Origin: Thermoplasmatota archaeon
GTDB lineage: Archaea > Thermoplasmatota > Thermoplasmata > Thermoplasmatales > ARK-15
Direction: 5' to 3'
Length of the DNA: 64,000 nt
Assembly (NCBI GenBank): GCA_031961545.1
Contig: JAVRLK010000001.1
Span: 6,596 to 70,595 of the forward strand
This document shows positions 13,153 through 46,236 of this stretch, piece by piece; position 1 is the stretch's first letter, and every line of letters starts with the position of its first letter. The notes under the pieces are model-generated. The model was not told where the DNA came from. It searched no databases and was given only the letters and a program-made list of their open reading frames with translations. A program made the translations under genes and the position numbers.

Positions 13153-14640
13153 TCAATAAACCTTTTCACCACCAACATAAACTTCCTGTTTAATGTTTTT
13201 TAACTCTTCCGGATCATTTATATCGAATGGATCCCTTTCAAGAATTATGAAATCGGCAAATTTTCCTTCTTCAAGAGAGCCAATTGAATATTCCTGTAAT
13301 GCCTTTGCCGAGCCCATTGTATAACAGTAAAGTGATTCTTCAAGATCAAGGCACTGATTTTCAGTATAATTGAAAATTTCAAGTTTTTCATATTTACCCC
13401 TTGTCATTGCGGCATAAATTGTTAACCATGGATTAACAGGTTCAACCGGTGAATCCGTTGAAAATGCAACATTTATTCCCCTCTCAACCATATCCCTGAA
13501 CCTGTATACCCATTTCATTCTTTCCTTACCAACTCTATCAATTATCCAGAAATCTGAGATGATGAAATGGGGCTGAACAACAAGTGTTAAATTTAATTTT
13601 TTTGCAAGATCAAGCTGATCGTCCCTCATGACCGATGCATGCTCTATCCTTACATTCCCATAAACCTTCGCTATATCCAGAGCAAAATCTATACCACCAT
13701 CACCTATAGCATGTATGGCTATCTGACCATCCTTATCCCTTATAATTTTTTCAATATTTTCCTTCTTTTCCACAACCTGCCCGTATGTTTTTTCATCACT
13801 GTACATTTCCGTCAGGTAGGCTGTCCTTGCACCAAGTGATCCATCAGCGAACAACTTTATGCCCTTTATTTTCAATTTTTCATTGATCTCCATGCTTTTC
13901 AATTTACTATTTTTGTTCATGTATGCAAATACCCTCAATCTCAATTTTCCTTCATCATTTATTTTTTTTAAAATATTGAAAATTTCATCACTTACCGAAA
14001 CAAATCCAACGGATGTTATTCCATTGGATAGAACATGATCCATGGCCTGTTCAACCATTTTTTTCTTTATATCCTCCGGTATCATCCTGTTGAACTTTTT
14101 CCTGAACAGTTCAAATACTTCCTCCTTAACAATACCAAGTGGTTCATTGTTTTCGTAAGGGAAATTCTCTCCCTCCTTTTTATAATCAACAAGTTCAAGC
14201 ATTTTTGTGTTAACAACAGCTGCATGCAAACATACCCTTGTCAAAAGTACAGGTCTATCATCAACAACATCATCAATATCATACCTTGTTGGCCACCTTT
14301 TTTCTTCAAACATTTCCTGATCCCATCCATGACCCATTATTGGCCCTGAACTATTCTCTGCAAATTCCTTCAGTTTTTTCTTCATTTCCTCAATGGATTT
14401 TACATTTCTTAAATCAAGTATGTTCAAAAACTGACCAATTTCATCAAGATGCAGATGAGCATCAATGAATCCCGGCAGAACAGTTTTTCCATTCAAATCA
14501 ACAATCTTTTCGGACAGTTTTTCTATTTCAATTGATTTTCCAACCTTAACAATCTTATTATTTTCAACAAGCATTGCCTCCTCCACTCTCTTTGGCTTAA
14601 AACTCACATATATTTTACCGTTAACAAATCCAACCTTCAT
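13153..14640 (-). CDS. amidohydrolase-family metallohydrolase (YtcJ-like / amidohydrolase 3)
   Basis: PGFIDAHLHLDE metal motif, AIHAIGD, FSTDSPV and a C-terminal GKFADFIIL pattern. Confidence 0.75.
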   Translation of the reverse strand: MKVGFVNGKIYVSFKPKRVEEAMLVENNKIVKVGKSIEIEKLSEKIVDLNGKTVLPGFIDAHLHLDEIGQFLNILDLRNVKSIEEMKKKLKEFAENSSGPIMGHGWDQEMFEEKRWPTRYDIDDVVDDRPVLLTRVCLHAAVVNTKMLELVDYKKEGENFPYENNEPLGIVKEEVFELFRKKFNRMIPEDIKKKMVEQAMDHVLSNGITSVGFVSVSDEIFNILKKINDEGKLRLRVFAYMNKNSKLKSMEINEKLKIKGIKLFADGSLGARTAYLTEMYSDEKTYGQVVEKKENIEKIIRDKDGQIAIHAIGDGGIDFALDIAKVYGNVRIEHASVMRDDQLDLAKKLNLTLVVQPHFIISDFWIIDRVGKERMKWVYRFRDMVERGINVAFSTDSPVEPVNPWLTIYAAMTRGKYEKLEIFNYTENQCLDLEESLYCYTMGSAKALQEYSIGSLEEGKFADFIILERDPFDINDPEELKNIKQEVYVGGEKVY

Positions 14641-35231: not shown

Positions 35232-35795
35232 ATGGATCCTGTGGGTGAAATAATCAGGTATGGAAAAATTCTTCAAAATTTCAATTATGTTCATTCAACA
35301 CACAGCGGTAATATAAGTGTTAGACTTGGCAATAAAATTTACATAAAAAAACATGGGAAAATGCTCGGTTATCTGAAAAAGAATGATATTATTGAACTGG
35401 ACATGGATGATGAAAAAAACTATGATAAGGCATCCGTAGAGGTTTATGTTCACAGGGAAATATACAGAAAAAGTGATAAGAATGCAATAATACATGCGCA
35501 TACACCATACGCTATAATTGTTTCACTCTTTTATGATAAAATCTATCCTGTGGATGATGAAGGAAAGTATTATCTGAGCTATATACCTGTGGTGGAGGCT
35601 GAGAAAACAATAGCTTCAATGGAAGTTGGTGAAAAATTATCAATTATTTTGAAAGAAATTCCTGTGGCCATAGTAAAGGGTCATGGAACATTTTCAGCAG
35701 GAAAAGATCTTGACGAGGCTTTGAAGTATCTTAGCCTCGCTGAATCCATTTCACATTTAAAATACCTTTATGATACATATTCAAAGATTCTATAG
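35232..35795 (+). CDS. class II aldolase/adducin-domain protein
   Basis: HSGNISVR, IHAHTPYA and KGHGTFSAG. The ATG at 35232 is preferred over the tracked GTG at 35220. Confidence 0.65.
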   Translation: MDPVGEIIRYGKILQNFNYVHSTHSGNISVRLGNKIYIKKHGKMLGYLKKNDIIELDMDDEKNYDKASVEVYVHREIYRKSDKNAIIHAHTPYAIIVSLFYDKIYPVDDEGKYYLSYIPVVEAEKTIASMEVGEKLSIILKEIPVAIVKGHGTFSAGKDLDEALKYLSLAESISHLKYLYDTYSKIL

Positions 35796-37631
35796 CTTCT
35801 CAACGTTCACAAAAGTTGTGTTAACTGCTGATACACGACCGTATTGTTCCTGGACCTCATCGGTTGTAAGATAATTCACATTCCACCCATATATGCTCGG
35901 CCATGATCCTTTATAAATTACAATGCACTTTTCCTTGACACTTTCATCAACCTTCACCCTTGTTTTTATGCTTCCAAATTCATTGTAAATCCTCACAGGA
36001 TCATTATCTTTAATCCCCAGAATAAAAGCATCTGATGGATTCATATGTGCGAATGTATCGAATGAATAAAGATTGTTGTGTTGGCTTGATATACCCTGCA
36101 CATGTGTTGGACTGAGCAATCTAAATCCATTATTTTCATATTTTCTGTAATTTTCAAGATCCCTTAAAACAGAGTTCAGATTCACATTTATTTTATTATT
36201 TATTCTTTCTACTTTTATAAAACCATCCTTGAAGAATTTTTCTTCATCCAGGTTTGCCCTTCTAAGTATATTTTTGATTATTGTCTTTTCGTCCTCAAAA
36301 AGGTATGGATCCTTAAGATCAAGCTTCCTGGCAAGTTCAACAAACAGATCATGGTTTGATTTTGCCTCACCCATGGGATTGAAAATTTTCTGATTGTAGT
36401 TAAGATAATCATGGTAATAGGAATCAACAATATCCTCATGCTCAAAAAATGTTGTTGCGGGCAAAAATATATCGGAATAAAGGCCCGTATCCGTCATGTA
36501 AATATCATGAACAACAACGAAAATATCCTCATCCATCAAAACTTTCCTCAATAAATTTTGGTTTGAAAGTGAAACAAGGGGATTATGGTTGTATACTATC
36601 AACATTTTTATGTTGTTTTTTATAATTTCCCTTCCAAGATCAGCCTGGTTTATTATTTTCCTTTTATCGTTTTCACCGGAAACATATGTGTAATCGATTC
36701 TATGTTTTGCATCATAGATGAACCTGCCCTCCTGTCCGATTATTGCAAGAAGGTATGCTATCATCTTTACAGCAGTTGCACCATAAAGGTTTCTCTGAAA
36801 ACCGTAACCAATATGGACAACAATTGGTTTCAGCGTTATAAGGTCATCAACAAATTCCTCAATTATTTTTTTATCAACACCTATTATTTTTTCCATTCTT
36901 TCAGGATCGTGATCAAAAGCATATTTCTTTGCTGGTCCTATATCATAACCCTTTTTATGTAGAATGTTCAACATGGTGAGGATAAGGTCAACATCCGTTC
37001 CAACCTTCAATCTAACATGGACATCTGAAGATTTTGCACTCTCCGTTATTAAAGGATCAACAACATATATTTTCCCTGATGATAGTTTTGCCATTCTCCA
37101 TCCATGTACATTTGTCCATGCTGGATTTATACCCCAGTAAACAACAAGTTTTGAATTTTTAATTTCCTCAGGATCCACACCTATTGATGTTCCAAAAATT
37201 TCCTTGAGTGCAAGAGAACCTGCCTCATCGCATATTGAATGGTTAAGTTTTGCAAAACCCAGATAGTTAAAAAGTCTTTGAGGGAAATGGTATGAGATTA
37301 TTCCCCTATTACCCGCATACTCAACAGGTAAAATACTATCTGGACCATATTCCTCCATAATTTCCTTTATTTTTCTGGATAAAACATCAAGGGCATAATC
37401 CCAGGTTATTCTTCTGAATTCACCCGAACCCCTTTTTCCAGTTCTTTCCATTGGATAAAGAACCCTGCCATTGTAATGCGCATCAACAAAATGTTTGGAC
37501 TTAAGGCATAAAAATCCGGATGTGATGGGATGGTTTCTGTTCCCTGTTATTTTTAATCTATTGTTCTCAAATATGCTTATTATTGAACAGGAATCGTAAC
37601 AGTCCTTTGGACAGGCCGAATAATATTGCAT
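35790..37631 (-). CDS. molybdopterin oxidoreductase (DMSO reductase/MopB superfamily), cytoplasmic
   Basis: N-terminal FeS motif CPKDCYDSC...C, 613 aa, no Tat signal and no in-frame TGA. Confidence 0.75.
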   Translation of the reverse strand: MQYYSACPKDCYDSCSIISIFENNRLKITGNRNHPITSGFLCLKSKHFVDAHYNGRVLYPMERTGKRGSGEFRRITWDYALDVLSRKIKEIMEEYGPDSILPVEYAGNRGIISYHFPQRLFNYLGFAKLNHSICDEAGSLALKEIFGTSIGVDPEEIKNSKLVVYWGINPAWTNVHGWRMAKLSSGKIYVVDPLITESAKSSDVHVRLKVGTDVDLILTMLNILHKKGYDIGPAKKYAFDHDPERMEKIIGVDKKIIEEFVDDLITLKPIVVHIGYGFQRNLYGATAVKMIAYLLAIIGQEGRFIYDAKHRIDYTYVSGENDKRKIINQADLGREIIKNNIKMLIVYNHNPLVSLSNQNLLRKVLMDEDIFVVVHDIYMTDTGLYSDIFLPATTFFEHEDIVDSYYHDYLNYNQKIFNPMGEAKSNHDLFVELARKLDLKDPYLFEDEKTIIKNILRRANLDEEKFFKDGFIKVERINNKINVNLNSVLRDLENYRKYENNGFRLLSPTHVQGISSQHNNLYSFDTFAHMNPSDAFILGIKDNDPVRIYNEFGSIKTRVKVDESVKEKCIVIYKGSWPSIYGWNVNYLTTDEVQEQYGRVSAVNTTFVNVEKL

Positions 37632-37710: not shown

Positions 37711-38061
37711 ATGAACTGGCCCCTTGTAATGGATATTTTGAAAAATTCCGAGAACAGTTTCCTGATAAAAATCAGGACTAAAAAGGGGCCCATATCCCTT
37801 GAAAAATTCATAAGAAAAAAGTTCTCAAAGATGGGTGAATTCTATCTTTTAAACCACTGGTCCCCCTATTCAAAGATAGGTGTTATTGAAATAATATTTG
37901 GAAACAGAAAAATATTCATAGAGTGGATTGCGAATAAGGAGAAGGAAGAAATTATTGATGTGAAGAAAATAGATAATTTTGATATAGAGGGATTTGAAGA
38001 ATACCTTTCATCCCTTGGTGTTGAGAGCAGCGTTCTCAGACTTATGCGCTGGGAATTATAA
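37711..38061 (+). CDS. hypothetical protein (116 aa)
   Basis: Clean ORF. Its last 50 or so codons are duplicated at 45950-46108. Confidence 0.55.
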   Translation: MNWPLVMDILKNSENSFLIKIRTKKGPISLEKFIRKKFSKMGEFYLLNHWSPYSKIGVIEIIFGNRKIFIEWIANKEKEEIIDVKKIDNFDIEGFEEYLSSLGVESSVLRLMRWEL

Positions 38062-38155
38062 AAAATTTATTTTAAAAGTAGCGGGGGGTGGATTTGAACC
38101 ACCGATCTACGGGTTATGAGCCCGTCGGGATTTCCTGGCTACCCTATCCCACTTT
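37898..38155. repeat. direct repeat copy 1 (3' end of the hypothetical gene plus a tRNA-iMet copy)
   Basis: Aligns with 45950-46201 with a few indels. The tRNA part is identical except for three substitutions. Confidence 0.9.
38079..38153 (-). tRNA. tRNA-Met(CAT), initiator-type, variant copy with an imperfect acceptor stem
   Basis: AGTGGGATAGGGTAGCCAGGAAATCCCGACGGGCTCATAACCCGTAGATCGGTGGTTCAAATCCACCCCCCGCTA. It has A1:U72 and GGG/CCC in the anticodon stem. U3:G70 is a wobble pair and A7:C66 is a mismatch. Confidence 0.7.
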
Positions 38156-38284
38156 GCCATTTTCACTGCCTGAAGTTAGGGATAGATAGATTGAGATAGA
38201 AGTACTAAAAAAGAAGGTTAATGCCTGATTACAAGGCAATTCAAACTTTTTAGCGTTTATTTTTGAAAATGGTAAAAATGGCTT

Positions 38285-40060
38285 TTAATAAAGCAAAACG
38301 GAAACGATTATTACGATCATGAAGGAAACGAGCATGTATACCGTATACCAAGCAATCGAACTGTTCATGAACTTTCTTGTGACTATGAAGCACATTTTCC
38401 TATAGCCTCTCCCAGTGGAAACCATAACATACCAGAAAATATCAGTCACTGAAATGGGCTGGTTATCACTTCTGATCTTTGTCCTGAGAATCCTGCGCAG
38501 CATCAATCTTATGTTGTTTGCATATGCGAACGATGTGTATTCCCCCGTTACTGGTCTTCCACTGTTCCAGACATCTGCCGTCCTGACCTTCGGTTTTCTG
38601 AAAACAGCATACGCCACTAGGGAAAAAATCAGAATAAGTAAGATAATATAATCGGGCGACAGCAGACCAAAATCTGCCACTGAAAACCTGGATACTATCG
38701 CGAAGCCATTGAAGACAAGCACTGATGGTACGCCACCCCTGAATATTTCTGGAATAAAAATGATGGAGATTGCAAACAGGACAAGAATCAGAGACCCAAT
38801 ACTGAACAAGGTAACAGCCTCTATCTTCCTGGCTTTACCCTTCCTTGCCCTGAATAATACAGAAAAAGAAAGGACCTTCATCATAGATCCCGTGGCCATT
38901 CCTTCGGATATTGCTATCACTGATCCAACAATTATTGCAATAATACCTATATAGCCCCCAAGGAAAGCCTGCATGAAAAATGATTCAAGGAGCATCCAGA
39001 CCGCAAGTCCGCCTATTGTTGGAAAGAGACCTGACAGAGACAAGGTGGAGAGAAGAGTACCAAGCCTCATCCATCTGTCTTCTGCAAACCCTGCCTCCCC
39101 AAAGTACTCCTTTCCAGTACTTCCTATTGATAGGAAGAGACCTGTTTTTGACAGGGCATGTGACAGGGTAAAGATAATTACTGTTATGAGAACGAATTCC
39201 TTCAGGATTGCATTATCTGATACGAGATACAGGCCAAAAGCCGCTAAAATTGCGGCCTGATTCTCTATCGTGCTGAATCCACCGAGCATCTTCATTTCCT
39301 CTGAAATGTAGGCATATATTGATACGAAAATGATCGAAATACTTGCTATTATCAGGAAAATTATTCCTATGTAAATCAGTCCAGAGCTGGCTGCACTCAG
39401 GAATATCATTTTATTTATTAGGTACACCCCCATCAATGTCATTGTTGCGCTGAATACAGCGGATGCATTTGCCGGTGCATTTCCATGCGCTATGGGAAGC
39501 CACTCACTTATCATAAAGGGGAACATGCCCATCTTGATCAGCGATCCCAACGATACAAGAAGAAGCGGTACTAAGCTTCTAACTTGAATAAAGCCAAATG
39601 AAGAATTTCCAGACATTACAAATGATGATATGGCACCGGCAATGATCAGCACTGTACTAAATTCGCTGAATGCCATAAAGGTGAAGGCGGGCCCTTTCCG
39701 ATTCTTATTCAATGCAACTATGAGATAAGATGAAATGGACATTATTTCCCATCCAGAAATTAGTAAAAGGTAGTTGTTTGAAACAAGTATTATTGCCATC
39801 CCAAGAACAGTTAGTGACAAAAGTGGTGCCAGCCATTTTCCATAATTTTCTCCGTAAGATAATGAATATATGCCTGCAAAAAACCAGACCATCGCAGCTA
39901 TGATGGAATAATAAGAAAGATAATCACACGGTACATACTGTGTAACTCCAAAAATCAAGGAAGAAACTGAAAGTATCAGGTAGGATGCCTTCCTGTTGAA
40001 TATTCCGACTAGTGCTGCAATTCCGAATAGTACAGGCCCAAGATAGGAAAGCATAATCAT
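38285..40060 (-). CDS. antiporter-like membrane subunit (HyfB/HycC/NuoL family)
   Basis: 591 aa and polytopic. It has LLISGWEIMSISSYLIV and LPIAHGNAPANASAVFSATM motifs. Confidence 0.75.
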   Translation of the reverse strand: MIMLSYLGPVLFGIAALVGIFNRKASYLILSVSSLIFGVTQYVPCDYLSYYSIIAAMVWFFAGIYSLSYGENYGKWLAPLLSLTVLGMAIILVSNNYLLLISGWEIMSISSYLIVALNKNRKGPAFTFMAFSEFSTVLIIAGAISSFVMSGNSSFGFIQVRSLVPLLLVSLGSLIKMGMFPFMISEWLPIAHGNAPANASAVFSATMTLMGVYLINKMIFLSAASSGLIYIGIIFLIIASISIIFVSIYAYISEEMKMLGGFSTIENQAAILAAFGLYLVSDNAILKEFVLITVIIFTLSHALSKTGLFLSIGSTGKEYFGEAGFAEDRWMRLGTLLSTLSLSGLFPTIGGLAVWMLLESFFMQAFLGGYIGIIAIIVGSVIAISEGMATGSMMKVLSFSVLFRARKGKARKIEAVTLFSIGSLILVLFAISIIFIPEIFRGGVPSVLVFNGFAIVSRFSVADFGLLSPDYIILLILIFSLVAYAVFRKPKVRTADVWNSGRPVTGEYTSFAYANNIRLMLRRILRTKIRSDNQPISVTDIFWYVMVSTGRGYRKMCFIVTRKFMNSSIAWYTVYMLVSFMIVIIVSVLLY

Positions 40061-40725
40061 TTCTCCTCCGTATTTCTTTTATTTTCTTTGTAATGACCCT
40101 TATCATTTCTCATAACAGCGTTAAGGGCAGCCAATATTGTATACGGAGAGGGAGGGCATCCAGCGATCTCAACATTATATTTTTCTCTATCCAATGGTGG
40201 TTCTCCAATGATCCCACCGGATAATGCACATGTTCCTAGTGCAATGATGAGTTTTGGTTCCGGCATAGCATCATAGGCTCTTTCAAGAGCCTCTTTCATG
40301 CCAGAAGTCATTGTTCCCATAACAATGATAGCATCGGCATGGCGGGGTGTGTTGACCACAAATATACCTAGACGATTTGCATCGTACTGTGGCGAGAATA
40401 TGCTGAAAAACTCTGTGTTGCACGCCCCGCAGGTACCGGAATCTATCACAAATACATGGAATGAACGCTTGAACGTTTTATTATAACTTTTTATTGTGAA
40501 CATATTCTGATCACCGGTTGGCTGTAAATCTGGCAGGCATCTACGGCAGAATATGCATTTCTCTCTGATCCATAAACCGTTGTTTATAGCGTTCACAGGG
40601 CATTTATCACTTCCATTTCCTACAAGGCTGGATGGCCATAGCGGTGCCTCAACAGATTCTACTGTTGGGAATTTTTCCGTTTTTATTCCCTTCCTTATCC
40701 CATTGAGAAACCATATGTTGCTCAT
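40057..40725 (-). CDS. NuoB/HycG-like small subunit fused to a degenerate HycF/NuoI-like ferredoxin segment
   Basis: NuoB cluster ligands are present: DSGTCGACN, LGTCALSG and GCPPSP. The N-terminal 70 aa carry DKCPVNAI...CIFCRRC. Confidence 0.8.
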   Translation of the reverse strand: MSNIWFLNGIRKGIKTEKFPTVESVEAPLWPSSLVGNGSDKCPVNAINNGLWIREKCIFCRRCLPDLQPTGDQNMFTIKSYNKTFKRSFHVFVIDSGTCGACNTEFFSIFSPQYDANRLGIFVVNTPRHADAIIVMGTMTSGMKEALERAYDAMPEPKLIIALGTCALSGGIIGEPPLDREKYNVEIAGCPPSPYTILAALNAVMRNDKGHYKENKRNTEEK

Positions 40726-41891
40726 CTTATCATCACCGCAAGTTCAGAAATCCATATTCCAAAACTTTCCCAGTTGAAATGGAAATCAGTGAATATATTT
40801 CCTGCCATAGATTTTATAAACGCATCAATATTAATCAACGAGGGGGACGCAATCTGCAGATCCTTTAGAATCCCATTTTCTATGTTTACGTAGTAGAAAA
40901 GGTCACCCTGAGGGCTCTCAATTCTAGCTGCGCCTTCTCCACTCATATGCGAAATAGGGGCAGCATCCGAATTTCCGCTGTATTCTATGGCTCTTGATAT
41001 TATTTCTGCAGATTCCAAGATTTCCTGACTTCTCACATAGAACCTTCCAAATGCATCAGGTTCATCAAATAAGAATGGCCTGAAACCGAGTTCTGAGTAT
41101 GGAAGATCTTTGGTGTCAATTCTAGCATCTATTTCCATCCCGGCTGCTCTGGCCGCCGGTCCGGTTAAGTTCCCTTCTTTGATTATTCCATTGTTCTGAA
41201 GTCTGTTCAGAAATATCTTTGACCGTAAAAGCCCATCAAATATTCTGGAAAAATCGTCTCTAATCCTTTTAACGGCGGAAGCTATTTTAGCTGTTTTCAA
41301 ATTGCAACCGCCTATAGAAGAAGCTGAAAAGAAATATCTATGGCCTGCTGCCCGGGAGATGATCCTTGACATTTCTTCCTGGAGGTATGCTATTTGATTC
41401 TGTGGAACGCCGAAACTCGCTGATTCGCACAGCCGTTTCACCACTTCCAGATTACTTCTCATCCTTTCCAGCTCGATCATTATCAATCGTGAATAGCGTA
41501 CACGTTCAGGTACTTCAATTCCAAGCGCATCTTCAACGGCAATTTCGAAGGCTATGGCATGTGATGCGGCATGAAAGCCGTTGATCCTCTCCACCATAAG
41601 CAGAGCATCACGTGGATCCAGTCCTATAATCTTCAATGTCCGTTTTTTGACGTATGGATCAACGTCGACGTGCTTTATCAGTTCACCTGGAGTATGTATA
41701 TCAAAAGCTACGGATTCAAGTAATCCACCTGTTGCGGGCCCATATTCAAAGGTGAACTCTCCCGGAAAATTCCAGTAGGTTTCCCAGGAAATGTCTATTC
41801 TCTTATCCGATATGGTTCTCTCGTATATTGAATATTTTTCGGTATTCCCGATGAATCTACCTTCAGGTTGGCCAAATCTATAATATCTCAC
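40722..41891 (-). CDS. NuoD/HycE-like large subunit lacking the NiFe-ligand cysteines
   Basis: MVERINGFHAASHAIAFEIAVEDALGIEVPERVRYSRLIMIELERM aligns with the hydrogenase L1 region R-x-C-G-x-C-x3-H, but reads N-G-F-H. The C-terminus has no D-P-C-x2-C. Confidence 0.8.
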   Translation of the reverse strand: MRYYRFGQPEGRFIGNTEKYSIYERTISDKRIDISWETYWNFPGEFTFEYGPATGGLLESVAFDIHTPGELIKHVDVDPYVKKRTLKIIGLDPRDALLMVERINGFHAASHAIAFEIAVEDALGIEVPERVRYSRLIMIELERMRSNLEVVKRLCESASFGVPQNQIAYLQEEMSRIISRAAGHRYFFSASSIGGCNLKTAKIASAVKRIRDDFSRIFDGLLRSKIFLNRLQNNGIIKEGNLTGPAARAAGMEIDARIDTKDLPYSELGFRPFLFDEPDAFGRFYVRSQEILESAEIISRAIEYSGNSDAAPISHMSGEGAARIESPQGDLFYYVNIENGILKDLQIASPSLINIDAFIKSMAGNIFTDFHFNWESFGIWISELAVMIR

Positions 41892-44816: not shown

Positions 44817-44840
44817 TTAAATCACCAGTTAAATCACCAG
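44817..44840 (-). repeat. exact 12-bp tandem duplication carrying the Shine-Dalgarno sequence of the first operon gene
   Basis: The minus strand reads CTGGTGATTTAA-CTGGTGATTTAA-T-ATG. Confidence 0.9.
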
Positions 44841-44929
44841 TTTCAGGTAGGCGTTATCAGCCAGCACAAAAACTGGCGGTTTACTTAGGTGGAAACGCCA
44901 TTCCACGGATTTCACTACATTTATATGAA

Positions 44930-45857
44930 CTATATAAATTTATCAGCTCTGTAGAAAACCTCTACAATAAAAATAATTCCAGAATCGTTTAGGACTACTA
45001 TTCTCCTTATATTGTATGCTATTATTTTCATTGCAATTTCTTTTTCAGATAGTTCTGGAATTCTTGATCTCACAAATGATCCACTTTTTCTTTTTATTAC
45101 TGAATGCACCGTTTCAACTATCGGCCTTCTATTGTATTCTTCAGGCAAATGCCTTTTCATTCTTTTTCTATGTTCTCCTCTAGTACGATGTATTGGAACA
45201 TCTTTATTTCTTGCAGGTATTATTGCCATAAGACCATATTTTTTGGCAATGATATGATTTTCTTCTGAATCATATCCCCTGTCACCAATAATGATCCTGA
45301 ATTTTCCAATTATTTCCCTATCCATATTTTCCAATGTTTTCTTGAACTCTTTTGAATCATGAATCTCTCCAAAGTAAGCATCATATGAAACAATCAGTTG
45401 TGAATGATCATCCACACATATTGTTGTTTTAACATACTTTTTCTTAACCTTCCTTCCAAAATCATCAAGCCTTTTATCGTAGTGAAAAGAATGATAATCC
45501 ACAGAATATCCAGTACTGTCAATTACCATTCTGTTTCCTAACATTCCCATAAAAAATTTCAGGATTTGATTGAAAACAAATGTAATGAGTGCTTTATCAA
45601 TCCTTTCTGAAAATTTCTGAATTGTTGTAAAATGTGGTATTTCAGAGAGAGAATAAAAGCTCAACAAATGCAGGATTTGATGCTATTATTTCAATAACAT
45701 CACGATAACTTAGATTATTCCAGTTTTTGTAAATAAATATGACAAAAAGCTGGTAGATCATATATTTCTTCTTGGAAAATTTGGAAGAATAAGCTAGAAG
45801 AAGTCTTTTGGATATAATTACAGCCTGTTCGATAAATTTATATTCATGTGATTTCAT
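44930..45857 (-). CDS. IS5-family DDE transposase encoded in two overlapping frames (+1 shift needed)
   Basis: The 71-aa and 245-aa ORFs overlap at 45642-45667. DDE elements are VIDSTGY, IIGDRGYDSEE and NRRPIVETVHSVIKRK (R-x3-E-x6-K). Confidence 0.75.
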
Positions 45858-45949
45858 TAAGAATTAGGGGGATTTTTGTCATATTATGTCTTCCATAAAT
45901 CCGACTAAATCCCCTAAATAAATACTTTACTTAGGATTTCTACAGATGT
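44945..45949 (-). mobile_element. IS5-family insertion sequence (about 1 kb)
   Basis: Imperfect terminal inverted repeats: AGCTCTGTAGAAAACC on the left and ACATCTGTAGAAATCC as the reverse complement of the right end. It carries a DDE transposase. No target-site duplication is evident. Confidence 0.8.
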
Positions 45950-46108
45950 TGGAGAATAGAAAAATATTCATGGATTGCAAATAAGGAGTAGGATGAAATT
46001 ATTGATGTGAAGAAAATAGATAATTTTGATATAGAAGGATTTGAAGAATACCTTTCATCCCTTGGTGTTGAAAGCAGTGTTCTCAGACTTATGCGCTGGG
46101 AATTATAA
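45950..46108 (+). pseudogene. truncated duplicate of the 3' end of gene 37711-38061
   Basis: ...EIIDVKKIDNFDIEGFEEYLSSLGVESSVLRLMRWEL, with an internal stop upstream. It starts exactly at the IS right end. Confidence 0.8.
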
Positions 46109-46124
46109 AAAATTAATTTAAAAG

Positions 46125-46199
46125 TAGCGGGGGGTGGATTTGAACCACCGATCTACGGGTTATGAGCCCGTCGGGATTTCCTGGCTACCCCACCCCGCT
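46125..46199 (-). tRNA. initiator tRNA-Met (CAT)
   Basis: AGCGGGGTGGGGTAGCCAGGAAATCCCGACGGGCTCATAACCCGTAGATCGGTGGTTCAAATCCACCCCCCGCTA. The 7-bp acceptor stem is perfect with A1:U72. Three G:C pairs close the anticodon stem. Confidence 0.9.
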
Positions 46200-46236
46200 T
46201 TTCAACCTTTAATGAAATTTTCCCTTAATAAGTTTT

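Follow-up and report, generated by a model that had tools for sequence, protein, structure and literature searches.

An energy-converting hydrogenase-related operon without Ni-Fe ligands, preceded by a fluoride riboswitch, on an acquired island of a Thermoplasmatota genome

The window analyzed here, a stretch of 64,000 nt from an acidophilic Thermoplasmatota archaeon, lies in the longest contig of a metagenome-assembled genome (MAG) of 1.55 Mb, which comprises 204 contigs and is 91% complete with an estimated contamination of 8%. It contains an operon for a membrane complex related to respiratory complex I and to energy-converting hydrogenases, whose large subunit has lost the cysteines that hold the Ni-Fe site and is the main subject of this study. 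All coordinates are positions in this stretch unless another locus is named, and all open reading frames (ORFs) of the operon are on the minus strand (Table 1). An earlier, sequence-only reading of the window had described a tightly overlapping six-gene operon from 44815 to 38285. We recovered the same ORFs, with overlaps of 4-14 nt, as an intact and translationally coupled unit in the order NuoH-like, HyfE-like, HyfF-like, large, small and HyfB-like subunit, which is the order hyfC-E-F-G-I followed by B. As that reading had noted, the operon holds no genes for NuoC, NuoE/F/G, formate dehydrogenase or maturation factors; NuoI is missing as well.

Table 1. Features of the operon, its leader and its flanks
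Feature	Coordinates	Strand	Basis or remark
Large subunit (EhrL-type)	40722..41891	-	GTG start, 389 aa; N104/H107/W380/E383 at the Ni-Fe ligand positions; Glu59 kept
NuoH/HycD/HyfC-like membrane subunit, 314 aa	43871..44815	-	Pfam NADHdh, E 5.8e-31
HyfE-like small membrane subunit, 217 aa	43221..43874	-	weak co-linear match to E. coli HyfE
HyfF/NuoN-type antiporter-like subunit, 448 aa	41878..43224	-	NCBIfam NF005042 'hydrogenase 4 subunit F', 644 bits
Small subunit, 222 aa, NuoB/HycG core plus N-terminal half-ferredoxin	40057..40725	-	Pfam Oxidored_q6, E 1e-23
HyfB/NuoL-type antiporter-like subunit, 591 aa	38285..40060	-	NCBIfam NF005046 'hydrogenase 4 subunit B', 728 bits
Fluoride riboswitch aptamer (crcB motif), operon 5' leader	44841..44914	-	Rfam RF01734
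Exact tandem duplication of 12-nt unit AACTGGTGATTT	44817..44840	-	between aptamer and ATG; contains the Shine-Dalgarno sequence
IS5-family element	44930..45949	-	between repeat and riboswitch; Pfam DDE_Tnp_1, NCBIfam IS5
Direct repeat copy 1	37894..38168	.	3' end of intact 116-aa gene plus tRNA-Met(CAT) copy 38078-38153
Direct repeat copy 2	45946..46214	.	decayed 3' fragment of 116-aa gene plus intact tRNA-Met(CAT) 46124-46199

The ORF at 40722-41891, which the sequence-only reading had taken for a NuoD/HycE-like protein of 389 aa, exists and contains the sequence quoted there. Its product matches Pfam Complex1_49kDa (PF00346, E 4.7e-22) and NiFeSe_Hases (PF00374, E 3.6e-11) and stays far below all curated NCBIfam cut-offs for NuoD and hydrogenases, the best being the NuoD equivalog (107 bits; cut-off, 360). 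In a MAFFT alignment with HycE, HyfG and NuoCD of Escherichia coli and the host genome's own NuoD, the HycE motifs RVCGICGFAH and DPCYSC stand opposite RINGFHAASH and GIWISE of the large subunit, and the same register is seen in the closest solved structure by sequence, Pyrococcus MbhL (6cfw_L, E 5e-21), in which ERMCGICSFSH faces ERINGFHAASH. The register of the earlier reading, with the L1 motif replaced by R-I-N-G-F-H-A-A-S-H and a C terminus without D-P-C-x2-C, is therefore right. Ni-Fe cysteines 1-4 correspond to Asn104, His107, Trp380 and Glu383, so that the check for mis-registered ligands found a cysteine at none of the four positions; the protein's cysteines are limited to C155 and C196, neither of which occupies a former ligand position. 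Both quinone ligands of NuoD are absent too, with Leu58 in place of His38 and Gly105 in place of Tyr87 (NuoD residues in Thermus thermophilus numbering), while the proton-relay glutamate of the beta1-beta2 loop of hydrogenases is retained as E59.

Database names such as 'formate hydrogenlyase subunit' and 'Ni,Fe-hydrogenase III large subunit', together with the two Pfam matches, would suggest a true [NiFe] hydrogenase or formate hydrogenlyase, or else a paralogue of canonical NuoD. Such an identity is barely credible, and we consider it refuted at the sequence level. Group 4 [NiFe] hydrogenases are defined by four Ni-Fe cysteines, all missing here in the checked register, even though the CxxC-type four-cysteine proximal cluster and the relay glutamate are present, and tblastn searches of the whole 91%-complete genome with E. 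coli proteins returned neither hypA-F nor hycI nor another hydrogenase large subunit. Concerning NuoD, the equivalog score, the quinone His38/Tyr87 pair and the nuoA-N operon context are all lacking, and a canonical nuoABCDHI...LMN operon lies on another contig (C2), where its NuoD carries the quinone histidine and tyrosine. The possibility, already considered by the sequence-only reading, of a canonical NuoD with its partner genes elsewhere in the genome thus gives way to a protein outside NuoD and a separate nuo operon with a NuoD of its own. Searches with the E. coli proteins by tblastn did not find nuoE/F, and NuoG gave a weak match to a molybdopterin enzyme alone.

The residues that replaced the cysteines are invariant or nearly so. 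Among 138 family sequences, N104, W380, E383 and E59 are conserved in 100% and H107 in 98%, and the more distant six-gene clades show N-[H/F/Y]-W-E at the cysteine positions, with T-F-Y-D in one clade. Ratios of nonsynonymous to synonymous substitution rates (dN/dS) of 0.12-0.33 for all six operon genes, compared with the two nearest copies, indicate purifying selection. Judged by this conservation, the N/H/W/E pocket is a rebuilt, selected site and not one in decay. An AlphaFold2 model built from 65 homologues (predicted local distance difference test score, pLDDT, 93.6) has its best fold matches in HycE (7z0s_E, TM-score 0.83), in the 49-kDa subunits of complex I and in MbhL, and by homology to the Ni-Fe site N104, H107, W380 and E383 would cluster in space.

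Closely related operons occur in other archaea. The large subunit is 70% identical to a Thermoplasma volcanium protein named 'formate hydrogenlyase subunit 3', which is encoded in a six-gene operon of the same make-up (strain GSS1, BA000011, about 1,528.5-1,535.1 kb), and 36-41 of 41 loci keep the six-gene unit without variation. Clustering of the ORFs at these 41 loci revealed no conserved partner gene beyond the six; the recurring neighbours, present in 7-8 loci and named from their sequence, are housekeeping genes for a KaiC-like ATPase, an enolase-superfamily protein, an aconitase and a TPR protein. A search of 1.84 billion representatives found all four cysteines in only 22 of its roughly 140 best full-length matches. 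A FastTree phylogeny of 149 sequences taken from the top 150 matches, rooted on NuoD as an assumption, places the large subunit in an N-x-W-E clade of 22 representatives (support 0.998), nested within a clade of 120 representatives that has no member with all four cysteines (CCCC). The protein therefore groups with Cys-less relatives, outside both the true hydrogenases and NuoD.

This phylogenetic position bears on the suggestion of the sequence-only reading that the operon encodes an energy-converting hydrogenase-related (Ehr) complex. Ehr complexes, which are widespread relatives of complex I and energy-converting hydrogenases, are said to have been described by Coppi in 2005 and by Marreiros and colleagues in 2013, with GSU0739-0745 of Geobacter sulfurreducens as the type example. 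A large subunit without Ni-Fe cysteines, subunit types like those of Geobacter, membership in a Cys-less clade and the presence of a separate nuo operon all support the Ehr identity, and we regard the complex as a new instance of this known family, whose six-subunit form is widespread in Thermoplasmatales. Ehr complexes have been described as relatives of group 4 hydrogenases without Ni-Fe ligands that are suspected of coupling redox reactions to ion translocation (PMC6349859), and the loss of both Ni-binding motifs from 'putative group 4 hydrogenases' of Thermoplasmatales was reported by Yelton et al. 2013 (PMC3750248). What is added here are the invariant replacement residues, the recent transfer and a near-universal fluoride riboswitch. 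The literature that we searched assigns no experimental activity, substrate or electron partner to Ehr, and we found in it nothing relevant on expression of the operon in Thermoplasma.

Compared with the Geobacter Ehr complex, for which NuoL-like, HyfE-like, large and small subunits are listed (PMC7894505), the operon shares a group 4-related large subunit without Ni-Fe cysteines, NuoL-like, NuoH-like, HyfE-like and small subunits, and the lack of maturation genes. It differs in having six genes instead of seven, a short large subunit (389 aa) without a fused NuoC-like domain, the N-H-W-E signature, a half-ferredoxin fused to the small subunit, and an upstream fluoride riboswitch. The set of Yelton et al. 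2013, from Thermoplasmatales and plasmas of acid mine drainage (AMD), belongs to the same protein family and the same six-gene operon, whereas the operon here was recently brought into a family in which it does not otherwise occur; that work speaks of neither the riboswitch nor the conserved residues in place of the cysteines. A second operon clade, at 33-41% identity, is present in other Thermoplasmatales (loci L061-L064; genomes G019, G033, G087 and G124), with six genes and N-H-W-E or T-F-Y-D at the former cysteine positions, and the two clades co-occur in some genomes.

Each subunit of the operon is nearer to E. coli Hyf/Hyc than to Nuo. In BLASTP, the NuoH-like subunit matches HycD with an E value of 3.6e-33 against 0.003 for NuoH, and within its family conservation is at least 95% for the equivalents of NuoH D63, K66, R148, E157, E228, K274 and R293. 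The 448-aa antiporter-like subunit is 41% identical to E. coli HyfF (E 3e-69), with Glu123 of transmembrane helix (TM) 5, Lys202 of TM7, His310 of TM11 and Glu369 of TM12 invariant (n=39 sequences), and its 591-aa counterpart matches HyfB (E 4e-24) with invariant Glu105 in TM5, Lys176 in TM7 and His301 in TM11 (n=34 sequences). Since these key residues of the antiporter-like and NuoH-like subunits are retained, the coupling machinery looks intact. The small subunit (E 3e-28 to HycG) keeps the ligands of the proximal [4Fe-4S] cluster, C99xxC102, C166 and C190, with hydrogenase-type spacing and a CPP motif, in 38-39 of 39 sequences, and its half-ferredoxin (C42-P ... C57xxC60xxC63) supplies ligands for exactly one further [4Fe-4S]. 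The latter are conserved in 34 of the 39, the five exceptions being four Methanobacterium/Micrarchaeota members in which the N-terminal domain is missing and one ORF whose call is truncated. Similarity between the 217-aa subunit and HyfE is weak (BLAST 8e-4; hhalign probability 44%, E 2e-4, residues 131-196 against 123-189), and the two proteins have equal length and an equal place in the operon; the 217-aa subunit has no match in Pfam or NCBIfam and no similarity to NuoK, NuoJ or NuoA.

The likeness to Hyf/Hyc (7z0s) thus extends from the closest subunits and the hyfC-E-F-G-I order to the HycE fold and the hydrogenase-type CxxC of the small subunit, and we regard the complex as Hyf-derived, a descendant of hydrogen-evolving enzymes. 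In contrast to Hyf/Hyc, the complex has no Ni-Fe site and no HyfA/HycB, HyfH/HycF, HyfD, FdhF, HycI or Hyp, and the large subunit lacks both the N-terminal NuoC-like domain and the C-terminal cleavage peptide. With MBH, the membrane-bound hydrogenase (6cfw), and MBS, the membrane-bound sulfane sulfur reductase (6u8y), of Pyrococcus furiosus, the latter of which works without a Ni-Fe site, it shares a ferredoxin-type peripheral arm, a NuoH-like anchor and antiporter-like subunits, but it has neither the Mrp Na+ module nor homologues of NuoC and NuoI. MBS is marked by a three-Cys proximal [4Fe-4S], two large-subunit cysteines and an Mrp-type Na+ module, and its [4Fe-4S] alone can be catalytic (PMC7684303). 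The complex described here does not share these marks: its proximal cluster has four cysteines instead of three, the two cysteines retained by MbsL are absent, and Pfam searches found no MbsA-G homologues in the operon.

The 5' leader of the operon carries a fluoride riboswitch aptamer of the crcB motif, a feature absent from the sequence-only reading. The crcB motif RNA, or fluoride riboswitch, is reportedly the subject of work by Weinberg in 2010 and Baker in 2012. On the coding strand, the leader matches the full model of RF01734 (positions 1-64) with 45.1 bits, above the gathering score of 34 (E 5e-10), and the aptamer ends 26 nt ahead of the first start codon. An aptamer at the gathering score precedes the first gene in 23 of the 33 related first-clade loci searched, T. 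volcanium included; in 20 of the 23 it directly adjoins the start codon, and in the three Methanobacteriaceae loci it lies 160-385 nt upstream. In the second clade, three of four loci reach the gathering score. A covariance model built from 27 aptamer hits recovered ten more loci at E<=4e-7 and two more weakly, leaving one locus with none, so that overall an aptamer stands ahead of the operon in 37-39 of 40 loci, and compensatory changes are visible in the aptamer alignment, both in P1 and the pseudoknot. In the predicted ligand-free fold, the Shine-Dalgarno sequence (CUGGUG) is paired with ACCGCCAG of the aptamer; this predicted sequestration fits a translational ON switch. The 12-nt insert between aptamer and ATG is found in the window sequence only and not in 11 aligned relatives; it gives a second Shine-Dalgarno copy downstream of the sequestered first one and could loosen fluoride control in the host genome.

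Acidophiles are severely stressed by fluoride, since hydrogen fluoride (HF) passes freely through membranes at low pH. As reviews explain, HF entry at low pH makes the cytoplasm acidic and depletes the proton-motive force (PMC11139923, PMC8004769). The same reviews count Na+/H+ antiporters and 'formate hydrogen lyase' among the genes that this riboswitch controls most frequently. The operon shares with this regulon both the crcB-motif aptamer and such gene names, but where the reviews take 'formate hydrogen lyase' at face value, as a metabolic shift, our results suggest that, at least in the lineage studied here, these genes encode a nickel-free Ehr complex. We found no paper in the literature searched that links Ehr by name to fluoride. 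The riboswitch therefore offers a first handle on Ehr function, one that could be put to the test in the cultivable T. volcanium.

The position of the riboswitch ahead of the operon suggests that the complex may help cells to survive fluoride. Building on this, we propose a fluoride-induced, ion-translocating Ehr complex that would offset the acid and ion load imposed by HF and would probably be driven by ferredoxin through its two [4Fe-4S] clusters; we put roughly even weight on this proposal being correct. At low external pH, HF would diffuse into the cell and dissociate, loading the cytoplasm with F- and H+, and F- would bind to the aptamer at 44841-44914 as a Mg-F complex. Binding would free the Shine-Dalgarno sequence from its pairing, and the six coupled genes would be translated. 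A low-potential donor, most likely ferredoxin, would pass electrons to the [4Fe-4S] of the half-ferredoxin and on to the proximal [4Fe-4S], and an acceptor other than H+ would be reduced in the remodelled former Ni-Fe pocket (N104, H107, W380, E383 and E59), where the large subunit meets the NuoH-like one. The redox energy would then drive the export of H+, or of a cation, by way of the two antiporter-like subunits, so that cytoplasmic pH and the ion gradient would be restored. The sequence features, their conservation, the linkage to the riboswitch and the transfer are observed, and on top of them the scheme infers induction, donor, acceptor, ion and direction of transport.

Three observations weigh against this proposal. 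The pocket has neither the Ni-Fe ligands of hydrogenases nor the His38 and Tyr87 of NuoD. The Methanobacterium and Micrarchaeota members have the riboswitch but no N-terminal cluster domain, so electron entry through that domain is not universal in the family. And since the host operon has an extra Shine-Dalgarno copy, with the IS5 element about 15 nt upstream of the aptamer, its regulation and promoter supply may differ from those of its relatives. At the Methanobacterium and Micrarchaeota loci in question (L035, L037, L040 and L042, from MAGs), His107 is replaced by Phe, the half-ferredoxin is missing from the small subunit and the aptamers are strong (58-62 bits); L037 has a second aptamer (13498-13561 of that locus) ahead of an inorganic pyrophosphatase.

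The members without an entry cluster are also what a redox-independent secondary transporter would lead one to expect, such as an Mrp-like cation/H+ antiporter or an F-/H+ exchanger in which the hydrogenase-like cap is structural or regulatory and the Fe-S clusters carry no net electron flow. That no NuoEFG, HycB, FdhF or conserved partner lies near any of the 41 loci points the same way. However, the conservation in this clade of all eight Fe-S cysteines, of the former active-site positions and of Glu59 would be hard to explain for a structural cap, and we regard such a transporter as a serious though rather unlikely alternative to the redox-driven complex.

Thermoplasma species respire sulfur, and the architecture resembles complex I and MBH, so that the operon might also encode an ordinary respiratory enzyme with no role in fluoride, either a second ferredoxin:quinone oxidoreductase or, in the service of anaerobic sulfur respiration in Thermoplasmatales, a ferredoxin:polysulfide reductase like MBS; for the latter, MBS sets the precedent of catalysis by a [4Fe-4S] alone (PMC7684303). 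Against this, the fluoride riboswitch is nearly universal ahead of the operon, the three-Cys proximal cluster and the two MbsL cysteines that an MBS-like reductase would have are absent, as are the quinone histidine and tyrosine that NuoD uses, and the operon is missing from the whole host family, so that it is accessory. Taken together, these points make a purely respiratory role improbable.

It is tempting to speculate about a more specific version of the proposed fluoride-induced complex, in which Ehr is a dedicated fluoride-handling machine and the former Ni-Fe pocket an anion site for F- or HF. The N-H donors of Asn104, His107 and Trp380, together with the carboxylates of Glu383 and Glu59, would bind F-/HF, which would either be expelled through a channel in the NuoH-like subunit or, by occupying the site, gate redox-driven proton pumping. 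This variant would fit the genome because CrcB/Fluc (PF02537) was not found in its 91%-complete sequence, and we consider it a long shot. If true, a first substrate could be named for Ehr, so far an orphan class, and fluoride resistance would include a kind of system with no relation to Fluc or CLC-F.

Apart from the aptamer of the operon, the genome has a single fluoride aptamer (contig C21:6906-6965, locus L066), located ahead of two small ORFs with coiled coils (77 and 123 aa) and of a transporter of the major facilitator superfamily (MFS, 384 aa), which may be a fluoride exporter given the lack of a recognizable CrcB/Fluc in the genome.

The sequence-only reading had seen in the operon's surroundings an acquired island, and comparison with related genomes bears this out. 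The operon and the IS5 element are bracketed by direct repeats of about 270 bp that are 90-95% identical, with island junctions at about 38156 and 45946. In a same-genus genome (L050), which matches both island flanks at 94.6% nt identity, the site is empty: the genes for a molybdopterin oxidoreductase (MopB), the 116-aa protein, tRNA-Met and RNR are contiguous, with a single repeat copy and no operon. The large subunit is present in 0 of 15 genomes of the host family against 82 of 151 genomes of the order, and the nearest copy (L013), in a MAG of another family, is 91% identical in nt over 7.1 kb, including the leader and an IS5 element at the equal position. GC content at third codon positions (GC3) places all six operon genes in the top ~4% of the genome, and most nuo genes, including those for all membrane subunits, are lower. 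These comparisons support a horizontal acquisition of the operon by a recent transfer. A complete riboswitch-plus-operon cassette that recently moved into a family without the operon points to an accessory, stress-related function.

The same deviating GC3, a nearest relative in another family and the 204-contig MAG with its 8% contamination could also arise if the island were an assembly chimera or a contaminant. We judge this to be very unlikely: the island lies 44-52 kb inside the 142-kb contig, both of its flanks match the same-genus genome as given above, and the flanking repeats differ by 5-10% and each run into host sequence, a pattern that an assembler would not produce.

The MopB gene beyond the island (35790-37631) encodes a cytoplasmic protein of 613 aa with weak FdhA/DmsA similarity below all curated cut-offs, and lies on the operon's strand 650 bp past its 3' end. 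Its position and its FdhA-like traits raise the question of an FDH-Ehr complex (FDH, formate dehydrogenase) with MopB as the electron-input module; FDH-Ehr complexes have been proposed for Riflemargulisbacteria (PMC6349859), and Geobacter shows higher levels of Ehr subunits on formate (PMC7894505). MopB is, however, outside the island and absent near the operon in the other 40 loci. We rejected it as a dedicated partner because sister genomes without the operon retain MopB at the equal position, and an FDH-Ehr complex of this kind is highly improbable.

Further observations concern the edges of the island. The tRNA-Met(CAT) copy at 38078-38153 differs by three substitutions in the 5' acceptor strand and probably does not function, while the copy next to RNR (46124-46199) matches the sister genomes. 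Both the length of the 270-bp duplication and its divergence are too great for a normal target-site duplication, and in the donor lineages we found no tRNA-Met adjoining the operon. The IS5 element, whose transposase frame is split here, is present in multiple copies in the genome that are 76-95% identical, several of them at contig ends, and these copies probably account for part of the assembly fragmentation. One Thermoplasmataceae MAG contains the nearest relatives, three different versions of the operon (L005, L006 and L013; 87-94% aa identity) on three contigs with differing coverages, two of which end at one point inside the HyfB-like gene; the shared end point suggests strain mixtures or an insertion in that gene.

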